Assembly: GCA_964520655.1 (NCBI GenBank)
Contig: CAZFNI010000010.1
Coordinates: 371 to 64,370 of the forward strand
Length of the DNA stretch: 64,000 nucleotides
Direction of reading: 5' to 3'
Origin: an uncultured Planctomycetales bacterium
GTDB lineage: Bacteria; Omnitrophota; Gorgyraeia; Zapsychrales; Fredricksoniimonadaceae
The notes under the pieces were generated by a model. That model did no database searches and was not told the DNA's origin. It was given only the letters and a program-made list of their open reading frames with translations. The position numbers and the translations under genes were made by a program. The stretch's first letter is position 1, and every line of letters starts with the position of its first letter. Shown in pieces: positions 18,001 to 58,648 of the stretch.

Positions 18001-21000
18001 AACCTGTCATTAAAACCAATGATGACGGCAGTAAAACCATAACACATGAAGGTAAAGACGTTCTGGTTACAATTGACAAGGATGGACAGATATTGAAGGT
18101 TGAAGGAAATCAGACGGCTTTTGCAGCCAAGGATTTTGAAGATACCTTTACACATATTTCTAGAGAATATGCGGAGGCGCTTCATCAGAGGTCCAATGAT
18201 TTTACTAAGCTGGCCCGTCTTTCTGCTGAAGGCGCTAAAGAAGTTTCTGCGATCGATCCAGATGATAAGGATAATGCTGTTGAAAAAGCTGTTGAAAGGA
18301 TCACGAAAGGTCAATCAGCTACAGCCGTTTATCAAGTGGTTGATGGAGTTTATGGAGTTATCACTAATGAAAGAGTTGGCAAGGCGATGTTCAACCGCAT
18401 GATGGTCCATCGCGAAGGCAATGACAAGATCGCCAGAGGGACAGTGATCACGCCGCAAACTTCTTCCACCATTGGTTTTCGCGGAGCGAACCATTCGACG
18501 GCTAGCATCATTGCGTTCTTAAACGATACTGATCAGCAGAAAGTAAGATTGACACCTCAGGAACAAGATATTGTTGATCTAATGGTGACAAAAGGTCTTA
18601 TTGCCAAGAAGGAAGATGGCGTCTGGATGGAATTAAAGAAAGGCGCGGTGTTCGGCGTCTATGTAAACCCAGTCAAGAATGATCCACAGGATATAAGAGA
18701 AGCATATCAGCATGAATTACGCCACAGCATCGAAGAAGTTGATCCTCAATATCAGAGAGACAATGACGCTACCCGTGCAGCATTCGATTCTAAAGCTAAC
18801 GGTGGCGAGGCAAAGGCGGAAGTTCCTGTTTACGATGCACAAGGGAAAGCGCAAGAACAAACGATTAACTTGATGGATGTAGCTAAAGATTTCCTGGTGT
18901 TTAAAGGTTACAGCAAAGAAGATGGTGAACTTATTCGTCGGGAATTGCCGGCATGGTTGAGTGATCTACCGAGCATGCAGCGGGAGATCAGTGATATTTA
19001 CGAACAATTTAAGACGCCTGATGAAATTGTGAAAGCATTTGGTAAAGAAAAAGCTGTAATGATCGTGAAGCTGCTTCCTTTGATACAAAAAGAATATCAG
19101 ACTAAATGGCAGGAGATCGAGCAGGCCTTTGCGGGAAATTATACAAAAGCTAAAGAACGGGCTGTGGTAAATACTCAAACGTCCGCAAAAGATTCTGGAT
19201 TAAAACCGGTCGTTCAATCGATAAGCCCTGCTGGCGCGCTTCCCACTGTCACCATTACAACACCTGCTCGCGTTGCGGCACCAAGCCCGGTATCGATCGC
19301 GCCAATAGCACAGACCAACTCAGCGCCACAAGGACAAGCGGCACAAACACGTTATGTGCCGGCGACAGCATCCCCGAGCGTTCCATTGAAATCCAACGAA
19401 CTCTATGACACCAAGACCGGCGAGATCTTCACGGCGCCGACTCCGGAAGCGGTCGGCGGCACGGCAACAATGCCCGCGCAGGCATTGCCGCATGCGGTCA
19501 TTGTACCTAATAATGCGTTGATGAATTTAGGTTTAAGTGCGGCTTCCGTAAAGGATCAGCCGGAAGCGATCCGTCTGGAGATCACACCTGCGGCAGGACA
19601 AGAAGGGCAATATGTCGGCACAGTGGTGGCCCGCGCGGTTGATCAGACCAGCGGCGATATCTTTGAGATCCCGCATGCGATCATTTATGATAGCAAGACC
19701 AATCAAATAGTACCTGCTGCCCCAGAACCCGTCACGGTCACGGTGGTTAAAAAGACAGGAGAAGCGCAGGCCCTTCCTCAGAAAGTCACGGTCGCTCAAG
19801 CGGCAGGGATCGATGCGCAAGCACCGGTGTTTGAAATGAGAGACGCTCTTGGAGCGCCCGCAGCGTTGATCAAGGATGGTCAAGTCATTGCTGTTTACAA
19901 TAATATTGCAGCACCAGCCGCGGCGCCAAAGCAAATGGAAATAAAGACGGCTGCCGGTCCGGTCAGCGTTACAACGGCTGATCGTTATGAATATGTTCCG
20001 GCAGAAAGATCATGGCGGACAGCCGCGGTTGTTGCAAGCGGTGCCGAGGGCATTGCCGCAGGCAGCGTCATCCGCAATAATTGGATCTTTGCCAATGACA
20101 ATGCCGCGCCGCAAGCTGTCATCCTCAACGGGCACGTTGTTCCTTTGGCAAACAGGAATGTGTCTGAACAAACAGCTCTCATGGGCTTGGCCGCGGGATC
20201 CTCTCAAAAGGGTAATACAGTGACCATCAATGGTCAGCCGGCCGTGATCACGCCAAACGGCGATATCACTGTCCCACTCGCGCAAAAAGAAGCGTTTAAT
20301 TCATTGCCTGTCACAGAGGCGACTTATCGGATGGTCCAACCAGATACGTCCATAGCGCCCCGGGTTGAAGTTCAACAATATCTTGTGGCCAGAACACCTG
20401 AGATCGAAAGTGCTCTGGCACAATTGCAGGCGGCAGAACCGCAAGCGTTCAAGATGCCTCAGGTGCAGCAATCAGCCGACAACGTTGAATATGTCGCTTT
20501 GGCCCCTGATCAAGTCGAGCCCGTCATTCGTGCCATTGCCCAAAATACGTTAACTCAGGCCAATGCATTGACGGCCAAACCTGTTGCCGCCGCAAGGCCG
20601 CAGGTTGCTATGCGGGAATTGACCATTGTCCCGCCGGCGGGATCCGCTGATAAAGATATTCTGCATGTGACCTATGCTGTTCCTGTCCAGGCTGGCAGCG
20701 AAAAAGCAGCTCCCAAGCTTGTGCGCGTGGAAGCGCTGGTGACGGGGACGATACAGAAAGTATTAGAAACTGTTCCCGGCATTGCAACGCCAAGGAATAT
20801 TGACGGCGGACAGCAAGTGATCGATGTGGCCCCGGAATTATTCACGGCGATCAAGCAGGCGGGTATGACCCTGATCCAGTCTGAGGCTGCCGGAAGAACA
20901 GTCGATGTTGCTGCCTTAAGAACCGCATTAATGAATGCCGTGCCCAAAGCGGCTGTGCCTGTATCGCTTCCTGTGTTAACGGAAGTGATCACCCCGGCCG

Positions 21001-33000: not shown

Positions 33001-36000
33001 TGAAAGACATGGTCATCACGATGGGCCGTAAACCGCTGGACATCACCTCGGCCAATATCACCAAGGCGGCAACCGATCCTAAGGCGTATGTGTTCTTAGT
33101 GCCCAATAACAAGGATATCCGGCGTGAACTGGCCAATGATCCAGAGGCCATGAAGGCGCTGGAATTGATCACCGATGTCCATGATAACAACGTCCGCACG
33201 GGAAGCGAGCTGTTCGCCGCGCAGGAAAAACTCATTAAAACGAATTATGTCGATCATTTGACCGGGATCGGCACGCAGGCGGAACTCAAACGCAGCGTCC
33301 AGGACATGATCAAGACGATGATGATGGGGACTTCATTAAGGTCCCGCGTCGCCCCGGCCAAAGAACCAACAGAGCGCAATGTTGCCTTCACTTATATCAT
33401 GTTCGACGGCAATAAATTCGGTTCGACCAATGTCCTCTTCGGGTTTGAGAATGGGGATGCGGTACTGGCCAAATTAGGCGAGATCGTTCGCGGCAATTCC
33501 CGTGAATCAGATATCTTGGTCCGCTGGGCGGGGGATGAATTCGTGATCGTTTTGCCGCAAGCCGGCAGAGAAGAAGCGGCCGCCTATTTGACCAAATTGA
33601 CTAAGGCCATTAACGAAGCCTCGTTCGTGCCGGAAGTCTTTGGCCGCAGCGCGGTATTAGAGAGATTACAGGCGAAACAGAATGATGACCTCTCCGAAGG
33701 CGACCAGGAAAAGATCCGTACCGGTTTGATCGCCCAGCTGAAGATGCAGAATCCCGGCAAGGAAGTCCCGGCGGATATGACCACTGAAATGGCTGTCAGG
33801 GCGATCAAGGCAGATCAATACGCCTTTGACCGCTGGATCGTTTCCATCACCGCCGGCGCAGCGGTGGTCAATAAATCTATTGAAGAGATGAAAGACAAAG
33901 ATCCAGAAAGCCTGCGACTGGAAGTGGAAAAAATGGCCGATACCGCTCTTGAAGGCGCTAAAGGCAACGGCAAAAGCTTTGATATCGTCAAAGACGGACA
34001 GCATTTTGTTTCCAATGAACCAACGGTGCTGGCGTTTGAGTCCAAAGAAGAACCTGTCGCGTATGCCGACCGCGTGGCTGGCCGCGGTGTGCTCGAAGGG
34101 TTAATGGATGAATCCATCCGCTGGGCGGAGAAGAATCATACCGTTCCTGTGCTGACCTATACTACAGGCGATCAGCTGGCAGGCATTAAAACATATTTGG
34201 CTAAGGAACATCCGGATAAAAAAGTTCGGAGCATCTATGATGCGAATTCGATCGGCGCGCTGGTCAATAATCCAGCGCTGTCACAGCAAGTGATCGTCAT
34301 CCCTGAGACGATGAAATTCAATTATCTAAAAGATTCTCCAGAGCTGCTGGCTGATTTTGAACGCATCACCGGTGTGCATGATGCCAAACTAACCGCTGAG
34401 GCCTGGTATGAATCTCAGCGCCGGGAGATCGATACTCCGGGGACAGACTTGTTGACAGGCTTGAAGAATAATGCCGGATTGAATCAAGCTGCCAGACAAT
34501 CCTTGAAGGAAATGGGCCGTATTATCGAGGCCGGGACCCCGGCCCGCATGGCCGCGGTTGTTGTCACCCTGCGTGATTTTAAGGCCGTCAATGACCTCTT
34601 CGGACATCATGCCGGCGATGCAATTTTAACGCTGGCCGGAAATTCTTTGAAAGCAGCGTCGCGCTTGACGGACAGCGAGGGACGTTTGGGCGGCGATAAA
34701 TTTGCCGCGATCCTGCCGAATACGGGAGAAGAAGGGATTGGCGCTTATGTCAGCCATGTGGTTGAACGTTTTAAGAAAGATCAGACACAGGATGCAGAAG
34801 TCGCCAGGATCTTAAGCAGAGACAATGTGGCTGACGTGTTGACACATATCTTGATGGATCCAACCACGACGGAGGAGAAAAAGATCAAGGTCTTGGGATG
34901 GGTGAAGACGCAGTTGAAGATCCAGAACCCCGGCAAAGAAGAGAAGATTGATGCGATTACAAAACTTTGGGATGCGATGAATGTGATCGACGAAAATAGC
35001 GACTTGACGTTCGACCGCTGGGTGATTGAATTAACGGCGGGCGCAAGCGGGATGACCCAGGTATTGCCGCAGAAGATCACCGATAAAGACGGCCGCCAGA
35101 TCTATGAGAAATTGATCACGGAAGCAAAGACCGCTGTTGCCCAGGCACAGAAAACAGGGGAGGTCGTAAAGCTTGGCCAATTTGATATCGCCTTAGAGAA
35201 AGCTCAGGCCGCCAAGCAGGAAAGCAGCGACAAGGCCCAGATCGCACGGGAAAAAGCACAGGCGGCCTCAGAAAAAGCTATCGAGAATGCCCGTGAGGCC
35301 CGCGATAGAGCGCAGATGGCTGCATATAATTTCAGTGCCCTGCGCAGCGCGGCAGTCCGTGAAGGCAAGTCCTACTTTAGTATATTGAAGGATGCTGTTT
35401 CAAACGGCCGTTTTGCCCAGAAGGCTAAGGATTACGGGGAAAATATCCGCGCCAAGATCTTGGATAATTCCTCCATCGCCAGGATCTTAGCGGCGATCGA
35501 GCAGCATAGGGCCTTTTTGAATGACCACCTGCAGGCCGTCAGAGGCCAGGTATTTAAGAAAGACGGCCAGGTCGGTTCTTCCGTCCAGACTAGCGCCGAT
35601 TCTTCGCAGGATCCCAATGACGCCACATGGTTTGAATATTTGATCAAGAAGATCAAGGATGCCGCCGATCAGGTGGTCTTTATCCTGGCGCGCCGCACCG
35701 CTTCATTCTTTAAGCCGGTATTCACCGCGGCCAATAGTTTCGCCGAGAACGTGGATTATGCGGCCTTAAAGGGCACCCGCGACATTGTCCGGGGCGTGCT
35801 GGCCTTCTTTGATCTGAATTCTGACGCCAAGATCGTTGACGTTTTTGCCGGCATCATTTCCCGTAATAAGGAAGCTTTGGCCAAGGCCAAGAACTTGCGC
35901 ACGATGCTCGTTGAGATCATTGAGATCGTCAAGATCGGGGACAATGACAACGAGGAGCTGCAGGAAGTTCCGGCCGATGCCGCGCAGATCGCCAACACTT

Positions 36001-39000
36001 TGGCCGATCAGATCATCGCTAAGTCCGGTATTAATTCATCCGCCTCCGCGGAAGATAATATGATCTTGGCCGTAGATCGTCAGACATTCAATGCCTACAA
36101 AGCGCTGCATTTGGAATTAATGGCCGCGGCAAGCAATCCGGCAGAGAAAGATGAAGCCATCCAAGCTTCCACGCAATGGTTCATGCGCTGGAAGATCAGC
36201 CCGCTCAATGCCCAGATGATCGTTGCCGGTTTAAATAACGGTAAAGGATTCACAGATCTTAAATCCTTATTGATGATCGATAAGAAGGATTCTTACTATA
36301 AGGCCAAGGATATCCAGCCGGGCCACAGCGTTGAAGGTGTGGAAGAAGTTGAAGAAGTTGAAGAAGTCCCGGCGGCAGTGCAGCCTGCGGATGTTCCTCA
36401 AGGCCCGTCTTACGCCGATCAATTCAATACGGAATACGGCGCGGAAGAGACCCAGACGATCGATGTCGAACCAATGGCGCCGCCAGCACCAGCCGACCGC
36501 AACAATATCAATGATTTCGATAATGAATTGCCGGTCATGCCGCAAGCGCCGCTGCCGCCAGCACCGAATAATATTCTGCCTAAAGTCGGTCCTTTATCCG
36601 ACGCCACAAATGATGTGCAATATGATAATGTCATTGAACTCTCGGCCGTGATGGCTGCGGGCAGGAGAAACACCGCGAAGTTAGAAGGCGAAGGCGGCAT
36701 TGCCACCGATGCCATGCCGGCGACCGGAACAGGCGACGAAGCGATGACATCTGTCGATCCCAACGATCCTTTGAAAGATAAGAAAGCTGTATTGCCCCAG
36801 ACCAATAAAAGCGGCAAAATGCCGCTGGATGAAGGCGGCACCACCGCTCCCATGAGGACCCCGACACTGCCAGGACCCATCGGCAACCCTGTGTCTGTGC
36901 CAGGCACAGCTGCGGCGCAGCCCACAGGTCCAGTGGCTGCCAATAATCCATTAGAACCAGCAGCACCTGAGGCGCCCGCGCCCAACACAACACCGATGGC
37001 TCAAAATAGTCCTTCGGCCCAAAATACTCAGGCACGGGTTGCGGCACCAACACCTTCTCCTGTACCAACTCCGTCCGCGGCAGGCGGAGCCCCGGCTGTA
37101 CCGCGCGCATTGACTGGCCCGCAAACGCCGCTGGGAATAACCTATAATCCGAGTGCTGTTGGATCCCAGGCTGAAGCGCCGCCTCCAGGGGCCTCACAGA
37201 CAACAAGAACAGCTCCTGCTGAACCGGTCAGTGAGCCAATACCATTACAATCACCTATTCCAGTGCCCGCGCAACCTTCTGGGGCTGGGTCAGGCTTAGT
37301 ACCGATCGTTTATGCGATCAGGCAATTGAGATATCAAGTCACAGAACCAGTTCCTACCGGTTCAAGATTAAGGGGGTATAATCCGTTTGCCAGAGTGCTT
37401 TTAAAAACGGCGCCGGATCACGCCCCGGGTCGTAACCCATCTGTCAGCGATTTCTCCGATCGCTCCGACAGAAGAAATGTAGGAAATGGAGAAAATGTAC
37501 AAACGTTTGCAGTACAAGCAGTTGCAGCAAAATCAGTAGTTTCTGTAAAATTAGCAGAAAATGACTTAGCGCAAGCTATGTCATCAAGCAAAAGCAGCAC
37601 AAAAGCAGTACAAGCAGCAAATCGTAGCGCCGAAGTAGCAGCAAGTGTCAACGCAGTACAGGTAGTACGTAGTGTTGCACAAAGCAGTAGTAGTAACAAT
37701 GTCCAAACTGGTAATAAGTCCTCCCTTAGGGGTAGGATGGCAGCGCAAGTAGCAGAAGCAAGAGCTGTAGTGTCAATGGACATTATGGCGGAAACACCTA
37801 GATCTGACAGGACTGTTTATAATAACAGTGCCGCTGGTAATAGTAATAGCAGCAGAGTACATATAGGAAATACTGCATCAAGCCTACGTGCAAGAAGTGT
37901 GCGCATAGACTCTGGGCACGGTATAGATAGTGTAGGTAGACTGTCTAGTGCTAGGGCTATATACACAGATACTGCCATAGGTGTGAGTGCTCGAGATTTG
38001 CCAACCGGGCTTGCCGGGGATGGTCTGCGTATGGGGACTGTTTCTGGAGGTTCAAGAAGTGTTGGCTTCTATTCGTTATTGTCAAAACGAGCACTGACAT
38101 TCAGCCAAACTAATCTCACACAAGCACAATTAAGTATCATCCGTTTCATCCATCAAAAGGGGAGGTACGTATGGTTACCGAACTTAAAATTAACCACATT
38201 ATCCGCGTCCGCGACGACGACTCCAGGATCGCAACCGCACGCGACGCAAACAACAAGATCCACATTTACCGCATCAGCAAACTGGGCATCATCACCAAAC
38301 ATAACGGGCTTAAATCCACATGGGATCCTGTTGAGGCCAGGATCAAGGAAAGTCTCCGCATTCTTATTGACGCCGCAAGCAAATTCGGCCGCAGTTACAA
38401 GATCGACCACGTCTGATCCATCACTCAATTCTAATAATGTTTTTGATCATGCGCGTATTTGGCTAGCCAAACAAAGCCAGGGCCGCTTTGTGTTTGACAG
38501 GGCACAGCGCGCATCCTGGAAAGACGCGCTCCAATCTATCCGCAGAGATCTATGGCAATACATCGCTGTTGCGGTGGGGGGCGTGATCGGTTCTGCGGTG
38601 ACGGTTGTCGCCATAGAAAAGGGATGGATCTCGCCGCGGGCCATCGAGATCATCCGCGTCAATACCTGGATTGTTTTAGGCGTATATGCATTTAAGGTAT
38701 TGATCGACCGCGTTTTTGGTAAGAACGATCGATCAGCTTCTTCCAAAGAAGAAGGCACAAAGAACGACGAAGACAAGAAGATATTGTCCGTCGCCTTGGT
38801 TTTAGGCACCGGGGCGGCCTTGATGTCTGTTTTAGGATTTACACCTGACGCCGAGGCGGCGCAGGCGCATTTAACACAACACAACGGAGGTGCACTATGG
38901 TTAAGATCACCAACATCATCGACATTCCCAGCACTAACAGCCACATTGCCACGGCCAGGGATGAACGCAACAAGGAGCACATCTTCTGCATTACCGATGA

Positions 39001-42000
39001 CGGTCAGGTCTTTAAACGCAAAGGCCGCAGTAAATGGGAAGAACTTACGGGTGAGCGCGCCAAACGCGTTATCTATACCACCTACGAAGAGTTCTGCTCC
39101 AGCGGCGAGAAAAGACACAGCGTCGAGGGCTATGTCGGCGTTCCGCTCTTTATGGCTGCAAAATAATCTGCGTGATGTGGGTGGCATGACCTCGCCCCTG
39201 TTAGGAACAGGGGCCGGCCTGGGAATTGTTCTGTTGGGGCTTGGTTTAAGAGCGCGCCGTCTCAGTGGCGCGCTTGGGGCAGGCGGATATTGGGGCAATG
39301 TCAGTGACGACCTGGAGAAACAGATCAGGTCCGTTCTACCCCGGGCCAGGGACATTAAAGGCCGTCGCCTGCCGGTGGAATTCAACGGCGTGCCTGTTCA
39401 GCACAAGTATTTCGAAAAAGAGTTTTTTGAGAAAAAAGATGTTTCATTTATCTGGGCAGCTAAGAGCCGAGGGAAACTGGTCATTTATTTTTCTTCATAT
39501 GGGCTCTTTACGCAATTGACCCGAGAGTTCCCCCATGAAAAGGAGTTAGAGAAAGCGCTCGAGATGGTTTATTACCACGAGATCAGGGAACAATATTATT
39601 TATCACGCGGGTGGGGGCGCGGCGACAGCCACCGGTTTGCCGTGACTGGCACCCGTATCCAGTATCTGCGTGAGAAGGACATTCTCTCTAGAATAGAATC
39701 CCTGATCGATCCTCTGCCAGCAGCAGCTAAGGACCATGTGCGCGTCCACATTGGCAAGAATGACGCCGAGGAGCTGGATCTAGGCGCTGCGCGTGCCGAT
39801 GCGATCGTACGGCAGCAAAAGGGACGAATCAATATAGCTGTCGGCGGCGGGGAAACAGTCCCGGCACTCCTGGATGCCTGGGTGAGGTTGATCGCAGAGA
39901 ATCTGCCGCTCTACAAAAGCATCATCTCCAGGATGCATGTGTTCATGGTGTATGAATCCAGGAACAGCAACACGCATCAGGTGGTGATTGATAGATTCAT
40001 CACCCCGCTTAAGGCCATGGGCATCAGCGTTGACAGCAAACAGATCCATGCCGTAAATTTACAAAACGCGCATACGCTTGAGGAATACAAAAAGATCGCG
40101 AAGGATTACACCATCGCCATGAGGAATTCGTTAGGTCCCAAGGACCAGTTCGATCTGATCTTAAGCGGGGTTGGCCAGCACGGTGAATTCGCCGGTTTTG
40201 AATCCAATTCACCGGTCATTTATGCCGCCAAGCCGGTGATGATCGCCTTTGAGCGGCGTGACGGTGTTTTGATGACCTCACTGACACCGGATGTGTTCCG
40301 TAAGGCCAGGAACATTATCCTGGTATTGATCGGGCCCCATAAGCGCGGAGCGCTGCTGGATATGATCGCCCCCGAAGGGTCCATCGGTCAGTCCCCGGCC
40401 AGGGTGATCCATGAACAGTACTGGGGCCAGACGGACATTTACACCGATCGTTCTTCCAAGCGCTGGCCGCAAAAAGAATTTTTATTGGATGATGGGACTG
40501 TATTTTTCGCGGATGTGCATGAGGGGCTTAAAGGATCGGATGTGGTCATTTTTATTCCTGGCTTTCATGACCATAATTATGACCAGCAGTTCCGCGGCCT
40601 GCCATATGCCGAGACCATCGTTGTGCGCCGCGACGATCTGCCGGTGAGATTAGGCAAAGATGAGGTGATGGCGTATTACGCACAAAAGATCAAGGCGGTC
40701 ATCAAATATTATCAGGACCAAGGCCGCCGGATCAAAGTGGTGACGCATTCTGACGGGAATGAATTCTTTGGATATTTCCTGGCGCATGCCGCCATGGATA
40801 TTCAGCCGATCGCCGCGCTTGACCGCATCAGCCCATGGAATGCGGCGGATATCGCTTTTGTTATTGAGCGGTTTGCTCAACATAAGCTGGGCCCCGCGGC
40901 TTTTGGGATCGGTTATGTCTCCCCATTGCTGGCATCGATCATGAGCTCGTCCTGGGGATGGTTGCCGATGCTTGGGCCCGCGGCCAATGAAATGCTGCGC
41001 TCATTCATCGCTTCGAACATGGATGCCTTCAGCAGCCTGTTTGACCAGGAGGATGCCACGTTAAGCGGTCAGCTGCGCCGTGATGACCTGGAGTCATCCA
41101 TGGAGATCCCGCTGGAATTGCTGTTCGCGGAATTGTATGCCGTGTCTCATCAAGACAAGGAAGTCACGACCAAGGCACAGGAACGTCTGATCGCCTGGGG
41201 AACGTTCGTGACCACGATCGCGCCTAAAGAGGACAATATTAGCAATGTCAAACGCATCGCGGAGGAACATCAACGATTTATCAGCATGAAAGGGAAAGGG
41301 GAACTTGTTGAATTATCAATCGATCCTAAAGGCGGCAGTTCATTTACGCAGGCCCATTTTATTCACCGTTTTGCGGCGCGGGTGAATGCCTTGATCGCCA
41401 GATTCCCCGGCGATGAAACGATCGTGCCTTCTGCGGAGACAGCGTTTGAAGGGATACAGGCAGCCTTAAGCATATCAAGAGAGAAGGGCCATACATTACT
41501 GCGTATTCATTTTGGTCAGGATGAGATCGACGTGCGGGCGCTTGCGGCTAATGTGGAAGATGCACAGATATATATTGATGATCTCACGACCCACCAAAGG
41601 GTTGTCAATTACACCATTGACCAAACCCGCCGGTATTCAAGCTCGGTGACGCTGCGTTTTAAGGACGGTGAATTACCCGCGGCGTTCTGGATCAAGATCG
41701 GGCAGGGGATCGAGAACACCATCGTGACAAGAGGGGCGGTCGATAAGAAGCTTCGTCCGTATTCATTCTTTGTGACTAAGGATGCCCATGGTCAGCCGTT
41801 CCCGCAAAGTCCAAGAACCGCGGAAGAAGCGTATGGGCTGATGCAGTCATATCGGATATCTGACGATGAAACCCAGGACCATGCCATCAGCGCGTCAGGA
41901 CAGATACTGGCAAGCACGGTCAATAATCATTTTGCTGCCAGGTTTATCCGGCATGCCGATCTGATCCAAAAGATCAACCGCTATTTAGGCCGCGGCGACC

Positions 42001-45000
42001 CGTTGGGAGCGCCGCTGGCGGTGCGCGAAAAAGGTCGGGTAAAATGGTTTGTGGAACCGGACCGTCTGGTGACCATATTATCGCAAGAACTTTCCGAATC
42101 AGAGAGAATAAGCGTTGTTGAAGCGCTTTCCGTTGTCCGCAGCTTTCTCCTTCATGAGTCACGACCGACGGAGAAAGAGGGTATTGCTGCCCAGATCACT
42201 GGGTTTATCCAGGAAGAAGAGATATCCAGAACACGTGACGCTTATGCGACGATCCAGGCGGCCGCGCGTCAGGGCGGTATCAAGACCCTGCAGCAGCTGG
42301 AGAAAAAATATCGCAAAGACCAAACCCTGATGTTCAGATTTGAACACCGTACCGCAGAAAATGTCATTATTTTGTACCGCTGGCCAACGCTCTTTGACGT
42401 ACCGGAAGTCCATAAGGTTCACAATGATATTTGGTTCAAATTCCCCAAAGAGCAGATGTCGCTTTTGCAGGTATACGCTCAGATCCAGAATTATCAGCGC
42501 GGGCATGTTGTGGCGGAAGTTTTTGATTTAAATGTCCCTGGCCGGCAGTACATTTACGCGCCGATCTGGAGCGTGCGGGTCAATGTGTCTCGTGATCTGG
42601 CCCGTCGACTGATGTTTTCTGATGTGGCAGGAACGATGTTTCAAACAGTAGATGCCTTGACCAATGACAAGACGCTTGACGGCGTCGTATCCGTTGACGG
42701 CCAATGGACGTTTAATTATGCCACGGGTCTACCGACAACCAAAGTCGCCAATCAGGACGCGGTTGCCGGGTATCTTGTCAAGGGCAAGCCGCTCAAAGGT
42801 ATTGATGATGGGTTGGTCATGACCCAGGCGTACCAGCAGCACCGCGACAGGATACGGTTCTTAAGAACATACAGCCCGATCACCGCGCTTGGCCTGCATT
42901 GGAAAAAAGGCGCGTTCAAATTTAATTTTGGTGAGATTCCCGATGGAAGATACCCTGGGGCGCATGCGATCATCATGGCCTACCCCTGGCATGATTTTAT
43001 GACCATTGGCAAAGGGCGCTTCTCTGAGAAGCTTTCCAGGGTAGTGATCGTGCCTTCGTATCGTTTTGGCATTGACCGCATCGCTTCACCGGTCGATCCG
43101 GATAAGGAAGAATTGGTCATTCGTGTCGCGGTTCCCGGGTTCAAGCAGGCCTTGCCGCGCAATAACCCGCTGCGCCGTCCTTTTGTGAAGGTTAACAAGG
43201 ATCTGATCCTCAGGAATGGGAATAATCATTACCGTGTTCCTGAGATCTTTAACATGACCGCGGTCGGACATGCCAAAGCATTGCTTAAACGGTATTTAGG
43301 GTTGGATACCATCACCTTGGCATCACTGCCTGAGCACAACGGCATGAAGCTCACCGTCGCTGTATTAGGTGACCATGAGACCCGCTCATTTAAACCGTGG
43401 ATCAATTTTGGGGTGATCAAAGCTCTGCTTAAGAACCGTCAGATCAATACGGTGGTCACCGCAACGACAGGAAATCAGGGTATCGCGCTGGCCTGGGCCG
43501 TGCGCATGCTGGCTAAGACCATGAAGAGGGAAGATCTGAAAGTGATCGTCTATGTCGGTGTTAATACGTCAGAAGCGAAGATCGCGCGCATGCGGGAGTT
43601 CGGCGCCATCGTCATTGGGGATCCTTCCCGCAACCCGGATGTTGTTTTCGAGAATTATGAAGCAGCTTATCAGGCGGCGCTTAAATTCTCCCAGATCCCC
43701 GAGATCAAGGAAAAGACATATTTTGTGGAACATGCCAACCGTGCGGCGATCTTGGGGTATGCCGCATTAGGATCAAGGGTTTTGGAGATCTTGCGTTCAC
43801 AGGATAACGCAGATCATTTGGCTATTATTGTACCCGTCGGGGCCGGAGGTCTGGCCAGCGGCTTTGCAGTTGCGTCACGATTGGAGAAAGATCCGACCAA
43901 GGTGTATATAGTCCAGACAACACGGACAAAGCATGCGTACATCTCGTTGTTGACCGGTAAGAGGGTCGTATTTGCCATGCCTCAAAGTCAAGAGTACGAC
44001 GAGAACGGCATCGACACTAAGAGTCTTGAGCCAATGGCATTAAAGACACTGCGCACTACCGCTGATGGTTTGGCGTTAGTTGACCCGACGCTGATACCTC
44101 AGACGATCGCATATTATCGCGCCCAGGGGATCATTGCTGAGGGGGCCGCGGTATTGCCATATTTGGCGCTGGAGGCCTTGAAGGAAGAATTGGCAACCAA
44201 AGGCATCACCCATGTTCTTTTGGTCGCAACCGGCAGCAATGTCAGCGATGCTGCGCAGAGTTCTCGGGACATCATGAGGCATGAAAGGGCGGCGGCACAT
44301 CGTTTGTACCAGGCCACAAGGAATTTGGAAAAGAAGCGCGCCAAGAACGGGCTGATGCCGATCGTCTCTGTTGGGGCGGCCACGTTTGAGCAGGGCAGGA
44401 GCGTGCATACGGCTTTCAATGATTTTAGCGTGCACGCTGAGGGGAATCTTGTTTTTGATGTGTTGGCCAGTCAGGTTAAGAAGGCACATCCAGCACTTCA
44501 AGAGCCATTAGACCGTCTCTATGCGCTAGTTTCAATGAGGAAGCTGTCCCGTGATCAGACGTCATTCAAACGCCTGGTCAAAATATCCGCGCAATTGGGC
44601 CATCCCATGAAGGGGCTGGATGTGATCGTGACATATGAACCTTGCCCGAGCTGCTTTAATCTCCTTTTCTCCGTCGGTGTTCGCAAGGTATTTTATATCG
44701 ACGCGCATCCTAATGATGAGTTCGCGCAAAAGCGCGGGCATGCCGGCCTTATGAAGGTACAGTTGGAAAGCTTGGCCAGGAAAAGCTTGATGAACCAAAG
44801 GTATAAGCACTTAGTGGCGCAGGACCAGATGGCATTTAGCGATGATCAGCGGGCAGCGCAGGATGTCTTTGCCAATTCATTCAGGCAATGGTTCAAAGAT
44901 CATTTGAATGCCAGCATTGCCGATGTCAGGGGGATGAAAGAACAAATCGGGAATGTTAGCGGCGCAATGTTTTGGAAGATGCCGCGCGGTGACAAGGGGA

Positions 45001-48000
45001 TGGCCTCTCTGAAGCCTGGAGTGCATTCTGGGTCATTGTCCTGGATCGATGGCTTACGATCGAATATCCGCATTCTCCACAATTGGTCCGCCGAGGAACA
45101 GATATTTGCGGCTGATCTATACCGCAGTCAGCCGGAAGTAAAGAAAGCATTTTTGAAAAATGCGCGCATCACCATGGATCTGGAAGCGTATTTAAATTCG
45201 AAAGGAATGCTCCCATTGGGGGTCATTGCCCGCCGTGAGAGCATTAGAACCAAAGTCAAGGATCTGGACCTGGGGTGGCGATGGCTTATCCGAACCGACA
45301 GTCATGAGAATGCAGAAGATGTTATTTTTAGAGTATTGACCCAGGAGCTTCCGGAGGATCAGCAGTTGACGCCGCGTGAAGCGTTGATGTTCATCGCCCA
45401 GGTCAAAGCACATGAAGAAGGAAAAAGCGAAGCGAAAGGCATTGTCCGTCAATACAGAGACATTAAGGCCCGCAATGCTGTTGAACCGAAATTGCGCATT
45501 GATCCGGTGTGGGCCAAGTCGGAGCAGATTAAGGATAGGATCAGGAAGCTTATGAATGTTCTGTGGCATGTGATCATAGGGATGGCATTTATTGCGCCGG
45601 TGATTAATTCAGAACTTTGGATCGTGGCTGCAGTGTATACGGCAGGCATGTGGCTTGCGGCTGCTTTTTGGATATTGATGTTATATTTCTCTGAGGTCCT
45701 GATGGTTATTGGCTGGGGGATCCTGGGGCTGTTTGTCTCTCCGGTGCAAGCCAAGATGGAGTTTGTTAACAGGATATTGACCGCGGCTTTTGCGGCAGCG
45801 ACCGGGATCGCGGGCTATCAGGTGTGGAATATGCCCAACGACGCCAGATCATGGCTTGTTTTGATATTTTTGGGGATCTTTACACATCGGAATCTTTCGG
45901 TGGATATCACCATCAAGCAGGATAATGATGCGCTGGACCTCACCCCCGTCTATGACTTAAGGTCAGGCAAAGAACGCAGCAACATCACCACCGCCTTTGA
46001 TAAGACCGAGGGGATCACGCTCCCCTGGATATACGGATTTAGTCCACAAGGCGGTCATACCGACGAGGACATCAACACGGCCTTACAGTATCTTAAGCGT
46101 ACAGCGCCCCGGAAAGCCTTGTTGCTTAAAACGCTGGTGGACGAAAATCGTTTGACTTTTGGGGCTGACGAAGCGTTCCACTCGGCCTGGGTGACTAAGA
46201 ATGGCCAGCAATACTTGTTGATAAGCGTGATGGAGTCCGAGGACAAGGCCAGGGCTCTGGTGCGTGCGATCGCCGGAAAAGAAGCGGTTTCAGGCTTTGA
46301 CCAGCTTAAGCGTGTAAAACAGACGATCTCCTCATCGGGAGGCGCCTTGGTCAATATCAGCAGCGGCGGGGCCATTTTAGATGTTGTCGCGGCCTATTAT
46401 GAGAACACAGATGCCGGGAAATTCAGCCGTTTCTGGTCGCTGGTTGACCAGAAGCAGATCTATATAAGCCGGCAGGTAGAGCAAACCCGATGGGAGGGCG
46501 ATGAGCTGCTGGTATCATTGTCCAATGATAAAGAACTGTCGCATGAGATCGTGGGGGCCATGGCTGTCCAAGGCGAAACAGCGCAGGGAGAGATCGATCG
46601 ATTGAGGCGGTGGCTTGAGGATCACACATCTGGCAAGGGACTAATGGCAAGTTGGGGCATGTCGGATCAGCAGATCGCTCAATTATCTTCCTGGGGCAAA
46701 GAGCAGCTGTTGAAGATATTCAAGATCGCCTGGCCGGAAGACATGGTGTTAAGTCTGCCAGCTGGGACTACGGGGAATTTGATCTGCTTTGAGCCAGTAC
46801 TCTATAAGATCAACCGTCCAGTGTTTAGCGGTGACCTGCTCTTGGTCCAAATGGCGGTCCTGGCTCAACGCAGGCGGCTGACAGGTATTATTGACGAGAA
46901 GGCGCGTTATGCCGCGGCGCTGTTGACTACGGCAGTTCCTTATTTATTAGACCTGCGTCGCGATGAGGATAGAAAGCAGGCGCTGATCACAGCCCTGGGG
47001 CCTGGGAATATGGGAGAGCAGGATACTCTGGCGACTTTTTACCGTCGGGTGTTGAACGATACGGCTTTGCAGAGGCCGGAAGATCTTCTTGTGCATCTTG
47101 CCGGAATTTTTGACTTGGATGAGGATTCCGTTGGAATGATCGGGACTGTTGACCATGCCCAGGCATCTGTAGTGCCGGGGGATAGTTTTATTGATCCCGC
47201 GCGCAGTGAGCCGCCGCTGGCCGTCTCGCATCAACCTTTGGTCATGAAGATCGCGCAGGAGCATATCCATACACATATGACCCCGTCACATTTGGATATG
47301 ATACGCGACGAGGATGGGCACGTTCAAGAGGATGCCTATACGGGAATGCGCAGGGATATTGAGAGATTCTTAAGGCAGATCGGGGATCTGCGGGCCCTGC
47401 GCATTTTTCAGGGAACGGTCATCCTCCCGTTTACGCCGGGTCTTCAGGACAGCTTGCAGGAAACGTTTTGGGGTGCATACACATTCCAGGGGTTAAACGG
47501 GACCTGGCAGAGAAACGCGGAAACATATCCAGTCATCATTGCCAATGATGCCGAATCGATCGTCCATGAGCTGTATGCTTTAAGCGGCAGGGAACATCAT
47601 CTGGCGCATGCCCATGAACAGGCGGAATATAAGGCTAAAATATTCACACAATGGCTGGAGTCACATAATGATTTTAATATTTTTTATTCCGGGCCCAAGC
47701 CGCATCGCATGGGCGCTTTAGGGTTGCTGAAAAAGATCATCCCGAGAATGGCGTCCGCATTTGCCGCCCAAGGTCAAGAGGCAAGGATTAATGTACTTTC
47801 CTGGGGAGGGGTGAGGCACCTGGAGCTTCCGGTGAGCACTGAGGGGCTGAGGGTCCTGATGTATGTGCTTGAACACAACCGCATGAATCTTAGTCAGTGG
47901 AACAATGTCCGTCTAACCCCGGATAATTTTAAGATCACTGTTGTTGCCGACCGCTTGGACACGCTCGATGCCAAAGCGTTTAAGATACACCTGAACCATT

Positions 48001-49187: not shown

Positions 49188-49189
49188 AT

Positions 49190-49212
49190 AAAGGGGACGG
49201 TCCCCTTTATCC
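49190..49212 (+). terminator. rho-independent terminator-like hairpin after the giant ORF
   Basis: aaagggg acggt cccctttat: a 7-bp GC-rich stem, 5-nt loop and T-rich tail, starting 3 nt after the TAG. Confidence 0.5.
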
Positions 49213-49246
49213 TGAATTTTCTCCTGATTTCATTAGACATTCTCCA

Positions 49247-49984
49247 TTGGGCCGTGGCATAATCCCTCCCATGGAATTATCATTAAAAGAACTGCGTCAG
49301 AAATTACGTTCACATGCCAACCCGGCTAAAGCAGAGGTCTATAAACGTTTCTTTAAGACAGGCAAAGGCCAATACGGCCACGGGGACCGGTTTATCGGAC
49401 TGACCGTTCCTCTTCAGCGTTCGCTTGCCAAACAGTTCGTGCATTTAGGTCTAACGGATATTGACGCGCTGCTGCAAAGCCCTATCCACGAGGAGCGGTT
49501 GACGGCGCTGCTGATCTTGGTGGCGCAGTATAAGAAAGCCCCCCAGCGCCAGCGGAAGGTTATCTTTGAATTCTATTTGAAGAGATCCGCCCGGGTCAAT
49601 AATTGGGACCTGGTGGACCTAAGCGCGTATCATATCGTCGGGGCGCATTTGGAAGGCCAGCCGCATGATATTCTTTTCAAGCTGGCCAGGTCGAAGAATT
49701 TATGGAAGCGGCGCATCGCGATCGTGGCGAGTTTTCATAATATCACCCGCGGTAAAAGCGAGCCGACGCTTATTTTGGCCGCGATGCTGCTCAAAGACAA
49801 AGAAGAGTTGATCCATAAGGCTGTTGGCTGGATGTTGCGCGAGGTGGGCAAACGGGTGGGGCGGGATGTTCTGGAAGATTTCCTGTGCCGCAATTATAAG
49901 CGCATGCCCCGGGTGATGCTGCGTTACGCCATCGAACGCCTGCCGCTGGAAAGACGCATAGCCTACCTGAAAGCGGAGTTGTAA
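49247..49984 (+). CDS. DNA alkylation repair enzyme (AlkD/AlkC-like HEAT-repeat DNA glycosylase); probable true start ATG 49271
   Basis: PAKAEVYKRFFKTGKGQYGHGDRFIGLTVPLQRSLAKQF and HEERLTALLILVAQY match the DNA_alkylation family signature (..YFKTG.GQYG.GD.F.G...P..R.LA). Confidence 0.7.
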   Translation: MGRGIIPPMELSLKELRQKLRSHANPAKAEVYKRFFKTGKGQYGHGDRFIGLTVPLQRSLAKQFVHLGLTDIDALLQSPIHEERLTALLILVAQYKKAPQRQRKVIFEFYLKRSARVNNWDLVDLSAYHIVGAHLEGQPHDILFKLARSKNLWKRRIAIVASFHNITRGKSEPTLILAAMLLKDKEELIHKAVGWMLREVGKRVGRDVLEDFLCRNYKRMPRVMLRYAIERLPLERRIAYLKAEL

Positions 49985-55867: not shown

Positions 55868-57247
55868 TCAGTGACGATCATTCATTTTTTTTCGCAATTC
55901 GGCGAGGTCTTTCTTTAGCGCGTCGATCTGATTCTGCTGTTGTTTGATGGCTTCGATCAAGGCTCCGACAAGGTTCTCCATAAAAACGTGTTTAATGCCT
56001 TTTTTATCCGTAAAGACAAGTTCCGGGAACACTTTTTCCACGTCCTGGGCGATCACGCCCAAAGATCTTTTTTTGTCTTTCTTCCAGGTAAAGGTAACGC
56101 CTCGCAGCGCTCTTACCTTATTTAAGGCATCGGTGATAGGCGTGATGTTCTCTTTCAAACGTTCATCGGAGGGGGCGCCGTAATAATACCCGCCGCTTAA
56201 GTTGTAAATATCTCCGTCAACGCCCATGTCGCCTAAGACATACAAGCGATAAGAAGCGTTCGGTGCCGCGCCGACCCCGACGCTGCCGCTTAAGGTGGTT
56301 GTGCCGACAGCAACATTTAAGGCTCCGCCCGCAATGGTGACCCCGGCATTGAAAGTGGCCAGGCCGGTGGTGGATAATGTTCCCCCGACGGTGGTATTGT
56401 TGGATAGGGTGGTAACGCCCGTGACACCAAGTGTGCTATTGACCTGCGTGGCCCCGCCCAGGGTTGTTGCTCCGGTGACATTTAACGTGCTGTTGACCGC
56501 GGTAGCGCCATTTAAAGTGCTTGTGCTTCCGGCGGTGAATGTGCCGGGACTGGTGACAGAAAGGGCGGTGGAAACATTGGCTGTGGCAAGGGTTGTTGTC
56601 CCGCTGACACGGGCATTGCCGGTGACATCCAGTTTCTGGGTTGGAACCATGCCGATCCCAAGTCCCGTTGAGGTTAGCCGCATTTGCTCCGCGCTATTAG
56701 TGTAAAAGGTAAGTGTATCAGCCGCGGGGTAGCTTAAATAAGTCGTTGTTCCGCCAAGATACAGGTTTGGGTTTGCGGCACTTAAGATCATATTGCCGTT
56801 GACGTCGAGTTTCTGAGCAGTAGCACCGGCGGGATTGATGCCCAGATTGCCGTTTGCCTCAAGGGTCATCTGGTCAGCGCCGTTGTTGATCCGAAAGTGT
56901 ATGGCCTGCCCAGCAGGGCGGTTAAAGTACAAGGCTTGGTCAGCCGTGCTGCTGCGGATATGCGCATTGGCGCAAGTCCGGTCGCCGGCCAGTCCTATTC
57001 CCACAAAACCCGCGCAGCCGGTTGCTTCTCCGATAGCAACATTGGTCGCTACCGTCACGTTTGAGCCGGCGTTGACGGTGCCGACACCAATATTATTAGC
57101 CGTTAAGATGTCATAATTGCCTGTTGGTGCCGGATAATAGGTGTTGATCGTATTGGATCCGGCAGCTGATGCCGTTAAGGGGGCCGCGAATACCGCCGTT
57201 AACAGGAACATCAGTAGTCGTTGTTTGGTCATCCAGGAATATGCCAT
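55868..57247 (-). CDS. secreted tail-fibre-like repeat protein with C-terminal Peptidase_S74 intramolecular chaperone domain (paralog 1)
   Basis: Signal peptide, then Thr/Gly/Asn/Ala-rich beta-repeats (TGATTLGGATQVNSTLGVTGVTTLS...). The last 100 aa, SDERLKENITPITDALNKVRALRGVTFTWKKD..., match the SDxRLKxNI auto-cleaving chaperone signature (nt 55871-56170). Confidence 0.7.
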   Translation of the reverse strand: MAYSWMTKQRLLMFLLTAVFAAPLTASAAGSNTINTYYPAPTGNYDILTANNIGVGTVNAGSNVTVATNVAIGEATGCAGFVGIGLAGDRTCANAHIRSSTADQALYFNRPAGQAIHFRINNGADQMTLEANGNLGINPAGATAQKLDVNGNMILSAANPNLYLGGTTTYLSYPAADTLTFYTNSAEQMRLTSTGLGIGMVPTQKLDVTGNARVSGTTTLATANVSTALSVTSPGTFTAGSTSTLNGATAVNSTLNVTGATTLGGATQVNSTLGVTGVTTLSNNTTVGGTLSTTGLATFNAGVTIAGGALNVAVGTTTLSGSVGVGAAPNASYRLYVLGDMGVDGDIYNLSGGYYYGAPSDERLKENITPITDALNKVRALRGVTFTWKKDKKRSLGVIAQDVEKVFPELVFTDKKGIKHVFMENLVGALIEAIKQQQNQIDALKKDLAELRKKMNDRH

Positions 57248-57265: not shown

Positions 57266-58648
57266 TTATTTGTTAAGGGTCATTTTCATTTGCTCGATCT
57301 CTTGTTGAATTTTGTCGAGCTGCTGCTGCTGGTCTTTGACATCCTCGATTAAAAGGCCGACCAGGTTTGGGTACTGCACATGTTTAAATTTTTTTCTGTC
57401 TTGATAGACCAGTTCCGGGAAGTTTTTCTCCACGTTCTGCGCGGTTAGGCCCAGGGCTCTTTTCTTGCTGTCTTTCCAGGTGAAGTAAACCCCTTTAAGT
57501 GATCTGGTCTTGGTTAATGCGTGTGTGATGGGAAGGATATTGTCTTTAAGCATCTCATCCGATGGTGCCGGGCCGTATTTGTATTCACCACTGATATTAT
57601 AAAGGTCTCCATCAATGCCGACCGCCTCAATGATGCCTGCTTCCTTGACGATCAGTCGATAGGGCAATGTGGGGGCTATTCCCATCCCGGTGCTGCCCGT
57701 TAAGGTGGATGTGCCGGCAACGCTTAGATCGCCCCCGGCAATGTTGATCCCGCCCGGGTTAAAGGTGGCAAGCCCGGTTGTGAGCAGGGTGCCTGTGACC
57801 GAGGCATTGCTTGATAAAGTGGCAATGCCAGTAACGCCAAGCGTGTTGTTGATCTGCGTGGCCCCGCTTAAGGTTGTTGCGCCGGTAACGGCCAGCGTGC
57901 TGTTGATGGCTGTTACCCCGTTTAGAGAACTGGTGCCTCCGGCGGTGAATGTGCCGGGATTGGTGACGGCAAGAGCGGTGGAAACATCAGCGGTCGAAAG
58001 AGAAGTGGTCCCGCTGATGCGGGCATTGCCATTAATATCGAGCTTTTGTGATGGGGCATAGCCAATGCCAAGACCGGTTGAATTCAGGCGTATTTGTACG
58101 AGGCTGTTGGTGTTAAAAGTTATGCTATTCGCAGAAGGGGAAGTTAAAGAGGTGGTCGCGCCTCCGAAAAAGAGGCTTGGGGCGGCTGAGCTTAAGATCA
58201 TATGACCGTTGACATCTAGTTTCTGAGCAGCAGCGCCACCGGGATTGATGCCCAGATTGCCGTTTGCCTCAAGGGTTATCTGGTCGGCGCCATTGTTGAT
58301 CTTATAATGGATATTCTGCCCAGTTGGCCGGTTGATATACAGAGCGGTGTCTCCCGAACTGCTGGAGAGTTGATAACTGGCGCAGGAAGCACTACCCGTA
58401 AATCCGATAGCGCCATAACCGCCGCATCCTTCTCCAATGACGGCATTATTGGCAATGGTCAGGTGGTCGCCGACAGTTGTTGTGCCCACCCCGATCGACC
58501 GGGCGTATAAATTATCATAATATGTCCCTGGTCTGGGATAATAGGTGACCATGGTCAAAGAGCCGGCATAGGTGATCAAAGGGAGGATGAGGACGGCGAA
58601 AAGCACAGCAGGCCATAATTTCAGTTTCATATTTAAAGTATACGACAC
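57266..58648 (-). CDS. secreted tail-fibre-like repeat protein with C-terminal Peptidase_S74 intramolecular chaperone domain (paralog 2)
   Basis: Same architecture as paralog 1. SDEMLKDNILPITHALTKTRSLKGVYFTWKD at the C-terminus (nt 57269-57562). The N-terminal TYYPRPG.YDNL...IGVGT block is shared with paralog 1. Start may be the internal MKLKL at ~58630. Confidence 0.7.
   Translation of the reverse strand: MSYTLNMKLKLWPAVLFAVLILPLITYAGSLTMVTYYPRPGTYYDNLYARSIGVGTTTVGDHLTIANNAVIGEGCGGYGAIGFTGSASCASYQLSSSSGDTALYINRPTGQNIHYKINNGADQITLEANGNLGINPGGAAAQKLDVNGHMILSSAAPSLFFGGATTSLTSPSANSITFNTNSLVQIRLNSTGLGIGYAPSQKLDINGNARISGTTSLSTADVSTALAVTNPGTFTAGGTSSLNGVTAINSTLAVTGATTLSGATQINNTLGVTGIATLSSNASVTGTLLTTGLATFNPGGINIAGGDLSVAGTSTLTGSTGMGIAPTLPYRLIVKEAGIIEAVGIDGDLYNISGEYKYGPAPSDEMLKDNILPITHALTKTRSLKGVYFTWKDSKKRALGLTAQNVEKNFPELVYQDRKKFKHVQYPNLVGLLIEDVKDQQQQLDKIQQEIEQMKMTLNK

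Follow-up and report, generated by a model that had tools for sequence, protein, structure and literature searches.

The window analyzed here is a stretch of 64,000 nucleotides (nt) of contig CAZFNI010000010.1 (positions 371 to 64,370 of the forward strand; assembly GCA_964520655.1, filed as an uncultured Planctomycetales bacterium with an Omnitrophota lineage in GTDB). It is dominated by one uninterrupted open reading frame (ORF) on the plus strand, which extends from a GTG codon at position 186 to position 49187 and encodes 16,333 amino acids (aa). The frame is open back to base 3 of the window without an in-frame start codon, and the part 5' of position 186 encodes a hydrophobic helix preceded by lysine and arginine residues (FSLWTRSVALFVLTVFIP). 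For both reasons the true start is probably located upstream of the window. The subject of this analysis is the C-terminal part of the giant protein, an enzyme tail of ~3,300 aa, which is a further example of the already described multi-enzyme giant proteins of the Omnitrophota. A first, sequence-only reading had assigned to positions 39700-49187, the 3' end of the ORF with the last ~3,160 residues, a fusion of six segments: a 6-phosphogluconolactonase (6PGL)/NagB-like domain, an alpha/beta hydrolase, a fold-type II domain dependent on pyridoxal 5'-phosphate (PLP), a deaminase of the cytidine deaminase (CDA) fold, a transmembrane block and a SpoT-type HD domain. The interval is sound, as the claimed domains begin at nt 39810 and end at nt 49169, and the concatenation in this order in one frame is confirmed and goes far beyond chance. 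Five of the six calls proved right according to Pfam, profile comparisons, hydropathy and a model calculated with AlphaFold2 (AF2), and the lysine of the PLP domain, the zinc ligands of the deaminase and the histidine and aspartate residues of the HD domain are all present; for the hydrolase only the fold is plausible. The CheR-like domain, the connector repeat, a displaced histidine in the 6PGL-like domain and the taxonomic and family context described below were absent from that reading. The main features are listed in Table 1.

The match of the PLP domain spans the whole Pfam model PALP, and among solved structures those of serine racemases and threonine dehydratases are nearest to it. K14403 in the motif SFK aligns with the Schiff-base lysine of serine racemase, and the loops TGN14430QG and GAGGLASG (the phosphate loop, with GAGGL starting at residue 14552) are kept. 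Comparison with the NCBIfam equivalogs for IlvA, TdcB and EutB gave at best 69.7 bits against a cut-off of 421 (cut-offs overall 317-801), so that the domain is a member of the family and an orthologue of no named enzyme.

For the zinc deaminase, a 191-aa piece used as query scored 27.5 bits with the Pfam model dCMP_cyt_deam_1 (cut-off 25), and the same domain scored 20.2 bits within a long query. Both motifs of the zinc site are intact (H14750-A-E14752 and P-C14820-P-S-C14823), and the strand after PCxxC, GV(R/K)KV(F/Y)Y, could be aligned with dCMP deaminases. Cysteine is scarce in this protein: only ten are found in 16,333 aa (residues 80, 292, 298, 455, 460, 1073, 1078, 14820, 14823 and 15534), and the relatives P0001 (5,926 aa) and P0004 (3,669 aa) have two and none, respectively. 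Since two of the ten are zinc ligands of the deaminase and a third is the cysteine of an N-terminal C39 peptidase domain, their retention is a strong, sequence-based hint of selection on function. The top PDB match of the deaminase piece, 7uek ("OT3"), aligned a repetitive helical segment and was disregarded; its sequence looks like that of an internally repeated, possibly designed protein.

The tail ends with a module of ~490 aa, in which a CheR-like domain with the fold of class I methyltransferases precedes the HD domain of the RelA/SpoT type. The last 1,094 aa (aa 15240-16333) served as query for an exhaustive HMMER search of 1.84 billion (1.84e9) representative proteins. It returned 14 proteins, which match aa ~15822-16331 only. 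Five of them are longer than 3,600 aa and five carry the NCBI label Candidatus Omnitrophota; the module is apparently nearly confined to giant proteins of this group. A family alignment and profile of nine sequences of the module (A1) was compared with the PDB and matched the hydrolase domains of Rel/RelA/SpoT (E=1e-12 to 4e-9), MESH1 (8e-9), a small alarmone hydrolase (SAH; 1e-7) and, for the N-terminal part, CheR 5ftw (E=5e-5). Seven residues of the HD domain are invariant in A1 (R16131, H16141, H16175, D16176, E16179, D16271 and N16275), and the HD motifs read KRERGEPYxxHPL, LLHDxxEE and IKxxDRxDN. An AF2 model of the module based on A1 reached a predicted local distance difference test score (pLDDT) of 82 and a predicted TM-score (pTM) of 0.77. 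Using Foldseek, the C-terminal half of this model was superposed on SAHs with target-normalized TM-scores of 0.72-0.75, and the N-terminal half matched CheR1/CheR with E=4e-6 to 1e-5 and target-normalized TM-scores of 0.51-0.57. Pfam recognized HD_4 in five of the nine family members and CheR in four of them (the best relative scored 26.6, under the cut-off of 27); in the sequence of the giant protein itself, Pfam reported neither HD_4 nor CheR.

The HD domain is tied to the family of RelA/SpoT homologues (RSH) by the relative P0012 (950 aa), in which the module continues into a synthetase: a CheR-like domain is followed by HD_4 (44 bits) and then by RelA_SpoT (38 bits) in one protein. In its domain order P0012 resembles a long RSH that starts with a CheR-like domain, and a protein of this type may be ancestral to the module of the giant protein. 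Publications that pair an SAH with CheR were searched for, and none was apparently relevant, judged by title and abstract. The combination of a CheR-like domain with an RSH-type HD domain is apparently undescribed, which is a modest detail.

At the other end of the tail, the 6PGL-like domain retains the loop GGGET and the motif HKRG, and a two-sequence profile built together with P0004 matched the 6PGL structure 2j0e (E=6e-8) and NagB 6nbg (4e-6). With the Pgl equivalog of NCBIfam it scored 30.8 bits, under the cut-off of 124 bits. Membership of the superfamily holds and the canonical chemistry is doubtful, as judged from the residues discussed below. A match of the same piece to Protease III (E=0.005) was regarded as spurious given the result of the two-sequence profile. 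The alpha/beta hydrolase is the weakest of the six calls. Sequence comparison gave no significant match to this domain (LCAT in Pfam with 14.5 bits, nothing in the PDB); the strand-turn-helix at T-H-S13522-D-G is recognizable, and its THS is kept in P0004.

A connector of ~130 aa, which marks module boundaries, occurs twice in the tail and ends with the pattern A(L/F)xx(I/V)...HE..(P/S)(T/S)E...AQ. It is present three times in P0001, two of these copies being partial (aa 3849-3880, 4305-4336 and 4528-4657), and among the sequences examined it is common only to the giant protein and P0001. Copy 1 precedes a conserved domain without a fold match, and copy 2 precedes the transmembrane block. An early guess that the conserved domain (aa 14005-14340) is GNAT-like was dropped, as a profile of three sequences matched nothing in Pfam or the PDB. 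The N-terminal flank of the transmembrane block contains seven lysine or arginine residues, and P0001 has a hairpin of two transmembrane helices at the equivalent position.

Relatives of the giant protein share its modules in a mosaic manner, which shows how such giant proteins are assembled. P0001 is collinear with aa 13979-14269, 14962-15146, 15495-15648 and 15841-16322 of the tail, and a local comparison of the tail with the 14 relatives revealed no detectable match in P0001 to the 6PGL-like/hydrolase or the PALP-CDA segments. P0004 contains a methyltransferase and a PP2C domain, then the 6PGL-like domain (79.7 bits) and the hydrolase, directly followed by the CheR-HD module. In total, relatives from other samples hold the same modules in proteins of 3,669-7,967 aa. 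Two linker styles seem to exist among them: in P0004, P0007, P0011 and P0013 the modules are parted by tandem repeats rich in Ser and Pro and by SS[PA]V linkers, of which each protein has 7-13, and none is present in the giant protein and P0001. A word-index homologue search returned nothing with the whole tail of 3,333 aa or with the 6PGL-like domain plus hydrolase, and only ordinary RelA/SpoT proteins with the module alignment. A scan of GTDB with PALP plus CDA found no relative, a scan of metagenomes with the HD alignment found two short loci only, and tblastn of the giant protein against 80 GlmS loci revealed no syntenic giant gene.

Table 1. Features of the giant ORF and its 3' end, with positions in the window and residues counted from the GTG codon at 186.
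Feature	Window position (nt)	Residues (aa)	Strand	Evidence or description
Peptidase_C39 domain	543-737	120-184	+	31 bits
Two tandem GGDEF domains	33198-35198	11005-11671	+	Pfam; 29% mutual identity
Transmembrane cluster 1	38559-39248	12792-13021	+	four candidate helices; K/R-rich outer flanks on both sides
160-aa lead-in	39273-39755	13030-13190	+	best Pfam match no better than E=0.17
6PGL/NagB-like domain	39810-40415	13209-13410	+	Pfam Glucosamine_iso 51.9 bits, cut-off 27
Alpha/beta-hydrolase-like domain	40479-41465	13432-13760	+	PGF(H) oxyanion-type strand end; T-H-S13522-D-G nucleophile elbow
Connector repeat, copy 1	41832-42200	13883-14005	+	ends LLHESRPTEKEGIAAQ
Conserved domain	42198-43205	14005-14340	+	homologues in P0001: aa 3855-4134 and a second copy
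Fold-type II PLP domain, Ser/Thr dehydratase/serine racemase family	43326-44234	14381-14683	+	Pfam PALP 99.1 bits, cut-off 35
CDA-fold zinc deaminase	44358-44705	14725-14840	+	Pfam dCMP_cyt_deam_1; HAE, PCxxC
Connector repeat, copy 2	45051-45458	14956-15091	+	ends KAHEEGKSEAKGIVRQ
Transmembrane block	45549-45905	15122-15240	+	four clear helices, possibly a fifth; Kyte-Doolittle peaks 1.9-2.15
~600-aa region	45906-47705	15241-15840	+	core aa 15495-15648 (nt 46668-47129) conserved in P0001
CheR-like class I methyltransferase-fold domain	47733-48395	~15850-16070	+	profile, Foldseek
RelA/SpoT-type HD domain, SAH-like	48483-49169	~16100-16328	+	profile, AF2 model
Terminator-like hairpin	49187-49211		+	starts with the final base of the giant ORF's stop codon

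Upstream of the tail the giant protein starts with a transmembrane helix resembling a signal anchor, followed by the C39 domain. Cys80 (nt 423-425, in INCASY) and a histidine (in GEHFITI) are found at the expected catalytic positions, and the domain could process the giant chain. The motifs of the two GGDEF domains are non-canonical (AGDEF and GGDKF); these domains could be degenerate cyclases or sensors of c-di-GMP or GTP. The bulk of the protein is rich in Ala, Val and Thr and is divided from the enzyme tail by transmembrane cluster 1; His and Arg are more frequent in the tail than in this bulk. In the unannotated middle part, ancient internal duplications with 26-32% identity were observed (aa 6346-6797 with 7058-7768, and 8166-8372 with 10673-10873). 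A weak match to the D2 beta-trefoil of the CARDS toxin (21.8 bits, under the cut-off of 26) is located at aa ~6114-6172 (window 18525-18701), where the sequence is rich in Ala, Val and Pro.

The giant ORF looks compositionally mosaic. In its first ~18 kb (186-18185) the GC content of third codon positions (GC3) is 0.36-0.47 and the total GC content 0.43-0.48, with a strong GC skew, and from 18186 to 49187 GC3 is mostly 0.52-0.67 with dips to 0.47 at 18.2-21.2 kb and 0.45 at 36.2-39.2 kb. The enzyme tail (0.59-0.67) has the GC3 of the flanking housekeeping genes (0.57-0.67). Downstream of the giant gene follow genes for an AlkD-like protein, TrmB, a DD-carboxypeptidase, DsbA and GlmS. The gene of the AlkD family of DNA-alkylation-repair enzymes (window 49247-49984, 200 bits) begins 60 bp past the giant gene, and a site resembling a promoter is located at 49234-49263; no link between this gene and the deaminase domain of the tail was established. 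Amid the housekeeping genes two adjacent paralogous genes of ~460 aa are located on the minus strand (55868-57247 and 57266-58648), each with a C-terminal Peptidase_S74 intramolecular-chaperone domain. Domains of this type typically occur in the tail spikes of phages and in endosialidases. The best GTDB matches of GlmS, which is encoded 4 kb downstream, are almost exclusively metagenome-assembled genomes of Candidatus Omnitrophota (56-65% identity); a look-up of the exact GlmS sequence gave no record. Together with the labels of the module relatives, these matches indirectly place the genome in the Omnitrophota, as far as sequence similarity can indicate.

With moderate confidence the tail is interpreted as an array of separate enzymes, stapled to the membrane and facing the cytoplasm, on a giant membrane protein of the Omnitrophota with at least 16,333 aa. 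The PLP, deaminase and HD domains have kept their cofactor, metal and catalytic residues. Several observations argue for a cytoplasmic location of the soluble domains: the flanks of the transmembrane clusters are rich in Lys and Arg and fit the positive-inside rule, P0001 has an even-numbered hairpin at the homologous position, the tail contains more His and Arg than the bulk and has the GC3 of the neighboring housekeeping genes, and the expected chemistry needs PLP, possibly S-adenosylmethionine (SAM), and nucleotide substrates. These requirements are established biochemistry of the enzyme families. The tail domains would act as individual enzymes attached to the inner membrane and would not form a channelled pathway. 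The PLP domain would catalyze a beta-elimination or racemization of the Ser/Thr type, and for the CDA domain the deamination of a pyrimidine nucleotide, nucleoside or base is predicted. The HD domain at the end would perform a metal-dependent hydrolysis of alarmones of the (p)ppGpp or (p)ppApp type. The whole terminal module would then represent a membrane-tethered SAH, and the CheR-like domain in it may set the activity or choice of target of the hydrolase. For the 6PGL-like domain, a role as binder of sugar phosphates or as an enzyme of altered chemistry is more likely. In physiological terms, a very small, host-dependent cell would in this way concentrate metabolic and second-messenger activities at its envelope.

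A number of results weigh against this interpretation. Should the transmembrane block consist of five helices, it would put the CheR-HD part on the outer side of the membrane, a place at which no alarmones are expected, and published predictors place many domains of such giant proteins in the extracellular space, a result that the authors themselves doubt for some of them. In the giant protein itself the Pfam model HD (PF01966) reached only 16.7-18 bits, under the cut-off of 22. The SAM loop of CheR, canonically AxCxTGEE, is not conserved and reads SWGGVRH. In the 6PGL-like domain, the catalytic histidine of DGH(T/I)AS is replaced by E13334 (GQHGEFAGF) with a histidine, H13332, two residues upstream, and P0004 has a glutamine at this place. 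The AF2 model of the hydrolase, based on an alignment of two sequences, has a pLDDT of 44.5, and only the first ~100 residues reach 57-82; of the catalytic triad S13522 alone could be placed, and Asp and His were not located in the poorly aligned C-terminal half. About 1,400 aa of the tail (13030-13190, 13760-13880, 14005-14340 and 15241-15840) are without a recognizable fold; two of these four stretches are conserved in P0001. No close orthologue of the giant protein was found in the word-index, GTDB and metagenome scans, and the exact order of modules was not found elsewhere, with the exhaustive search covering only the last 1,094 aa.

Several other explanations of the same data have to be weighed. 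The giant chain could be a polyprotein, cut by its own C39 peptidase or at the connectors into free enzymes, with ordinary soluble or small membrane proteins as the result. The C39 domain of the giant protein keeps its catalytic Cys80 and histidine; module boundaries are marked by the connector ending in HE..PTE here and in P0001 and by SS[PA]V linkers in other relatives. This possibility has been raised by West-Roberts et al. (bioRxiv 10.1101/2023.11.21.568195). However, no cleavage motif has been demonstrated, although C39 peptidases are known to cut after double-glycine leaders and a search for these was not part of the analysis. Most of the fragments would also remain anchored by the transmembrane clusters, and we regard processing into free enzymes as unlikely. 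We see even less probability in an array of secreted or surface-exposed effectors that act at the surface or in the interior of a host or prey cell, although polymorphic toxins can contain deaminase and alpha/beta-hydrolase domains, the N-terminal helix resembles a signal anchor and the protein is almost free of cysteine. Action on prey surfaces has been proposed for giant proteins of the Omnitrophota. In the present case PADLOC gave 0 hits, the deaminase lies within the chain and resembles dCMP deaminases, MafB19 reaching only E=0.15, and the giant gene is followed by the AlkD-family enzyme and housekeeping genes and not by a small immunity-like gene. In addition, the Lys/Arg-rich flanks place the tail inside the cell, and the PLP-dependent, possibly SAM-dependent and alarmone chemistry is cytoplasmic. 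The suggestion of a toxin-like multi-effector in the sequence-only reading was abandoned on the basis of the PADLOC result, the type and internal position of the deaminase and the housekeeping genes downstream.

That most of the tail domains are catalytically dead fossils, used by a structural giant protein as a scaffold or to bind ligands, would agree with the loss of the canonical histidine from the 6PGL-like domain here and in P0004, the degenerate GGDEF motifs further upstream, the altered SAM loop of the CheR-like domain and the scores of every domain far under the NCBIfam equivalog cut-offs. The PLP lysine with its loops, HAE and PCxxC in a protein purged of cysteine and the complete catalytic set of the RSH family are all kept, however, and make this explanation improbable. 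For an artefact of assembly or sequencing that joined neighboring genes in one frame, the different GC3 of the first 18 kb and the remainder of the ORF could be quoted, and nothing specific beyond it. Against it stand 49 kb free of stop codons in one frame, independent relatives from other samples with the same modules within proteins of 3,669-7,967 aa and the terminator-like hairpin directly 3' of the stop codon, so that an artefact is hardly conceivable. A more far-reaching functional proposal sees in the tail a hub for salvage and signalling, tethered to the membrane of a nanobacterium that depends on a host. Host-derived amino-sugar phosphates (NagB-like domain), esters or acetyl compounds (hydrolase), D/L-Ser/Thr-type amino acids (PLP domain) and pyrimidines (CDA domain) would be processed at the contact membrane, and the terminal module would couple the flux of these substrates to the levels of (p)ppGpp/(p)ppApp. 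We consider this proposal highly speculative and give it little probability.

The array of separate, cytoplasm-facing enzymes is compatible with the membrane-tethered metabolic or signalling assembly suggested initially. The part of that suggestion which concerned an ordered assembly line did not stand, because the modules are shuffled independently among the relatives, which argues against an obligatory order. The description of the fusion as unprecedented was overstated as well, since the class is known from two preprints, and P0004 and P0001 hold subsets of the same modules. Thus, nothing is overturned by the present example, as the class of giant proteins had already been described. The giant proteins of the Omnitrophota belong to the largest known proteins; the present example is small enough to dissect. 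The three domains with intact sites (PLP domain, zinc deaminase and alarmone-type HD domain) could each be expressed and assayed separately, and the module of CheR-like and RelA/SpoT-HD domains offers a handle on the control of the stringent response or of second messengers at the membrane.

Giant proteins of the Omnitrophota tile many unrelated enzyme domains between transmembrane helices (bioRxiv 10.1101/2023.11.21.568195; 10.64898/2026.06.07.730766). The C39 domain with an N-terminal helix, GGDEF domains, transmembrane clusters and divergent tiled enzymes have been reported in these two preprints and in a Nature Microbiology paper. The protein described here shares with this class a single ORF that exceeds 10 kAA (thousand amino acids), a C39 domain adjoining an N-terminal hydrophobic helix, GGDEF domains, transmembrane helices, many unrelated and divergent enzyme domains including HD and methyltransferase-type domains, and a poor conservation between members. 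Class 1 of Nielsen and Lui (2026; bioRxiv 10.64898/2026.06.07.730766), the "multi-enzyme metabolic clusters", comprises proteins of at least 10,000 aa that carry transmembrane helices or have a signal peptide and with many Pfam families, none of them dominant. With 16,333 aa, its transmembrane clusters and the families C39, GGDEF (two copies), Glucosamine_iso, PALP, dCMP_cyt_deam_1, HD and CheR-like (by profile), the giant protein falls into this class. Neither preprint mentions PALP, CDA or Glucosamine_iso in its text, and a downstream PilZ gene, as reported for many giant genes, was not found. With the "Archaeovorins" of West-Roberts et al. (2023; bioRxiv 10.1101/2023.11.21.568195) it has only the C39, GGDEF and methyltransferase-fold traits in common. 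Their defining glycosyl transferases, glycosyl hydrolases, SAM methylases, NUDIX and SecA-like domains were not detected by Pfam at E<=0.1 in all 16,333 aa, and therefore we filed the protein under the broader multi-enzyme class and not as an Archaeovorin.

The individual domains resemble known enzymes to different extents. The 6PGL-like domain has the fold family, the GGG(E/S)T loop and the basic residue in HKRG in common with 6PGL and NagB (2j0e, 6nbg), from which it differs by glutamate (glutamine in P0004) in place of the catalytic histidine. With serine racemase and the threonine/serine dehydratases (6lut, 3l6b, 2gn0) the PLP domain shares the Schiff-base lysine, the asparagine loop and the glycine-rich phosphate loop; unlike these enzymes it is without regulatory ACT domains and lies directly upstream of the deaminase. 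The deaminase has the zinc site HAE...PCxxC and the strand after it in common with dCMP and cytidine deaminases (4p9c, 1vq2), but it carries an insertion of ~65 residues between HAE and PCxxC and its Pfam score is borderline. Similar to CheR (1af7, 1bc5, 5xly, 5y4r), the CheR-like domain has the CheR-type class I fold with the arrangement FDLIxxNY...GGxLxTT, whereas AxCxTGEEPYS is changed to SWGGVRH, a chemotaxis context is missing and the domain is fused to HD. The HD domain resembles RSH hydrolases and SAHs (6yvc and 6z3n, the SAH of P. aeruginosa; RelH 7qoc; MESH1; the (p)ppApp hydrolase 7smg) with target-normalized TM-scores of 0.65-0.75, and as in SAHs the set of R, H, HD, E, D and N is kept and no synthetase domain follows. 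In contrast to SAHs, HDxxED reads HDYIEE, an insertion of ~20 residues follows the HD motif, and the domain is located at the very end of a 16-kAA membrane protein, always preceded by the CheR-like domain.

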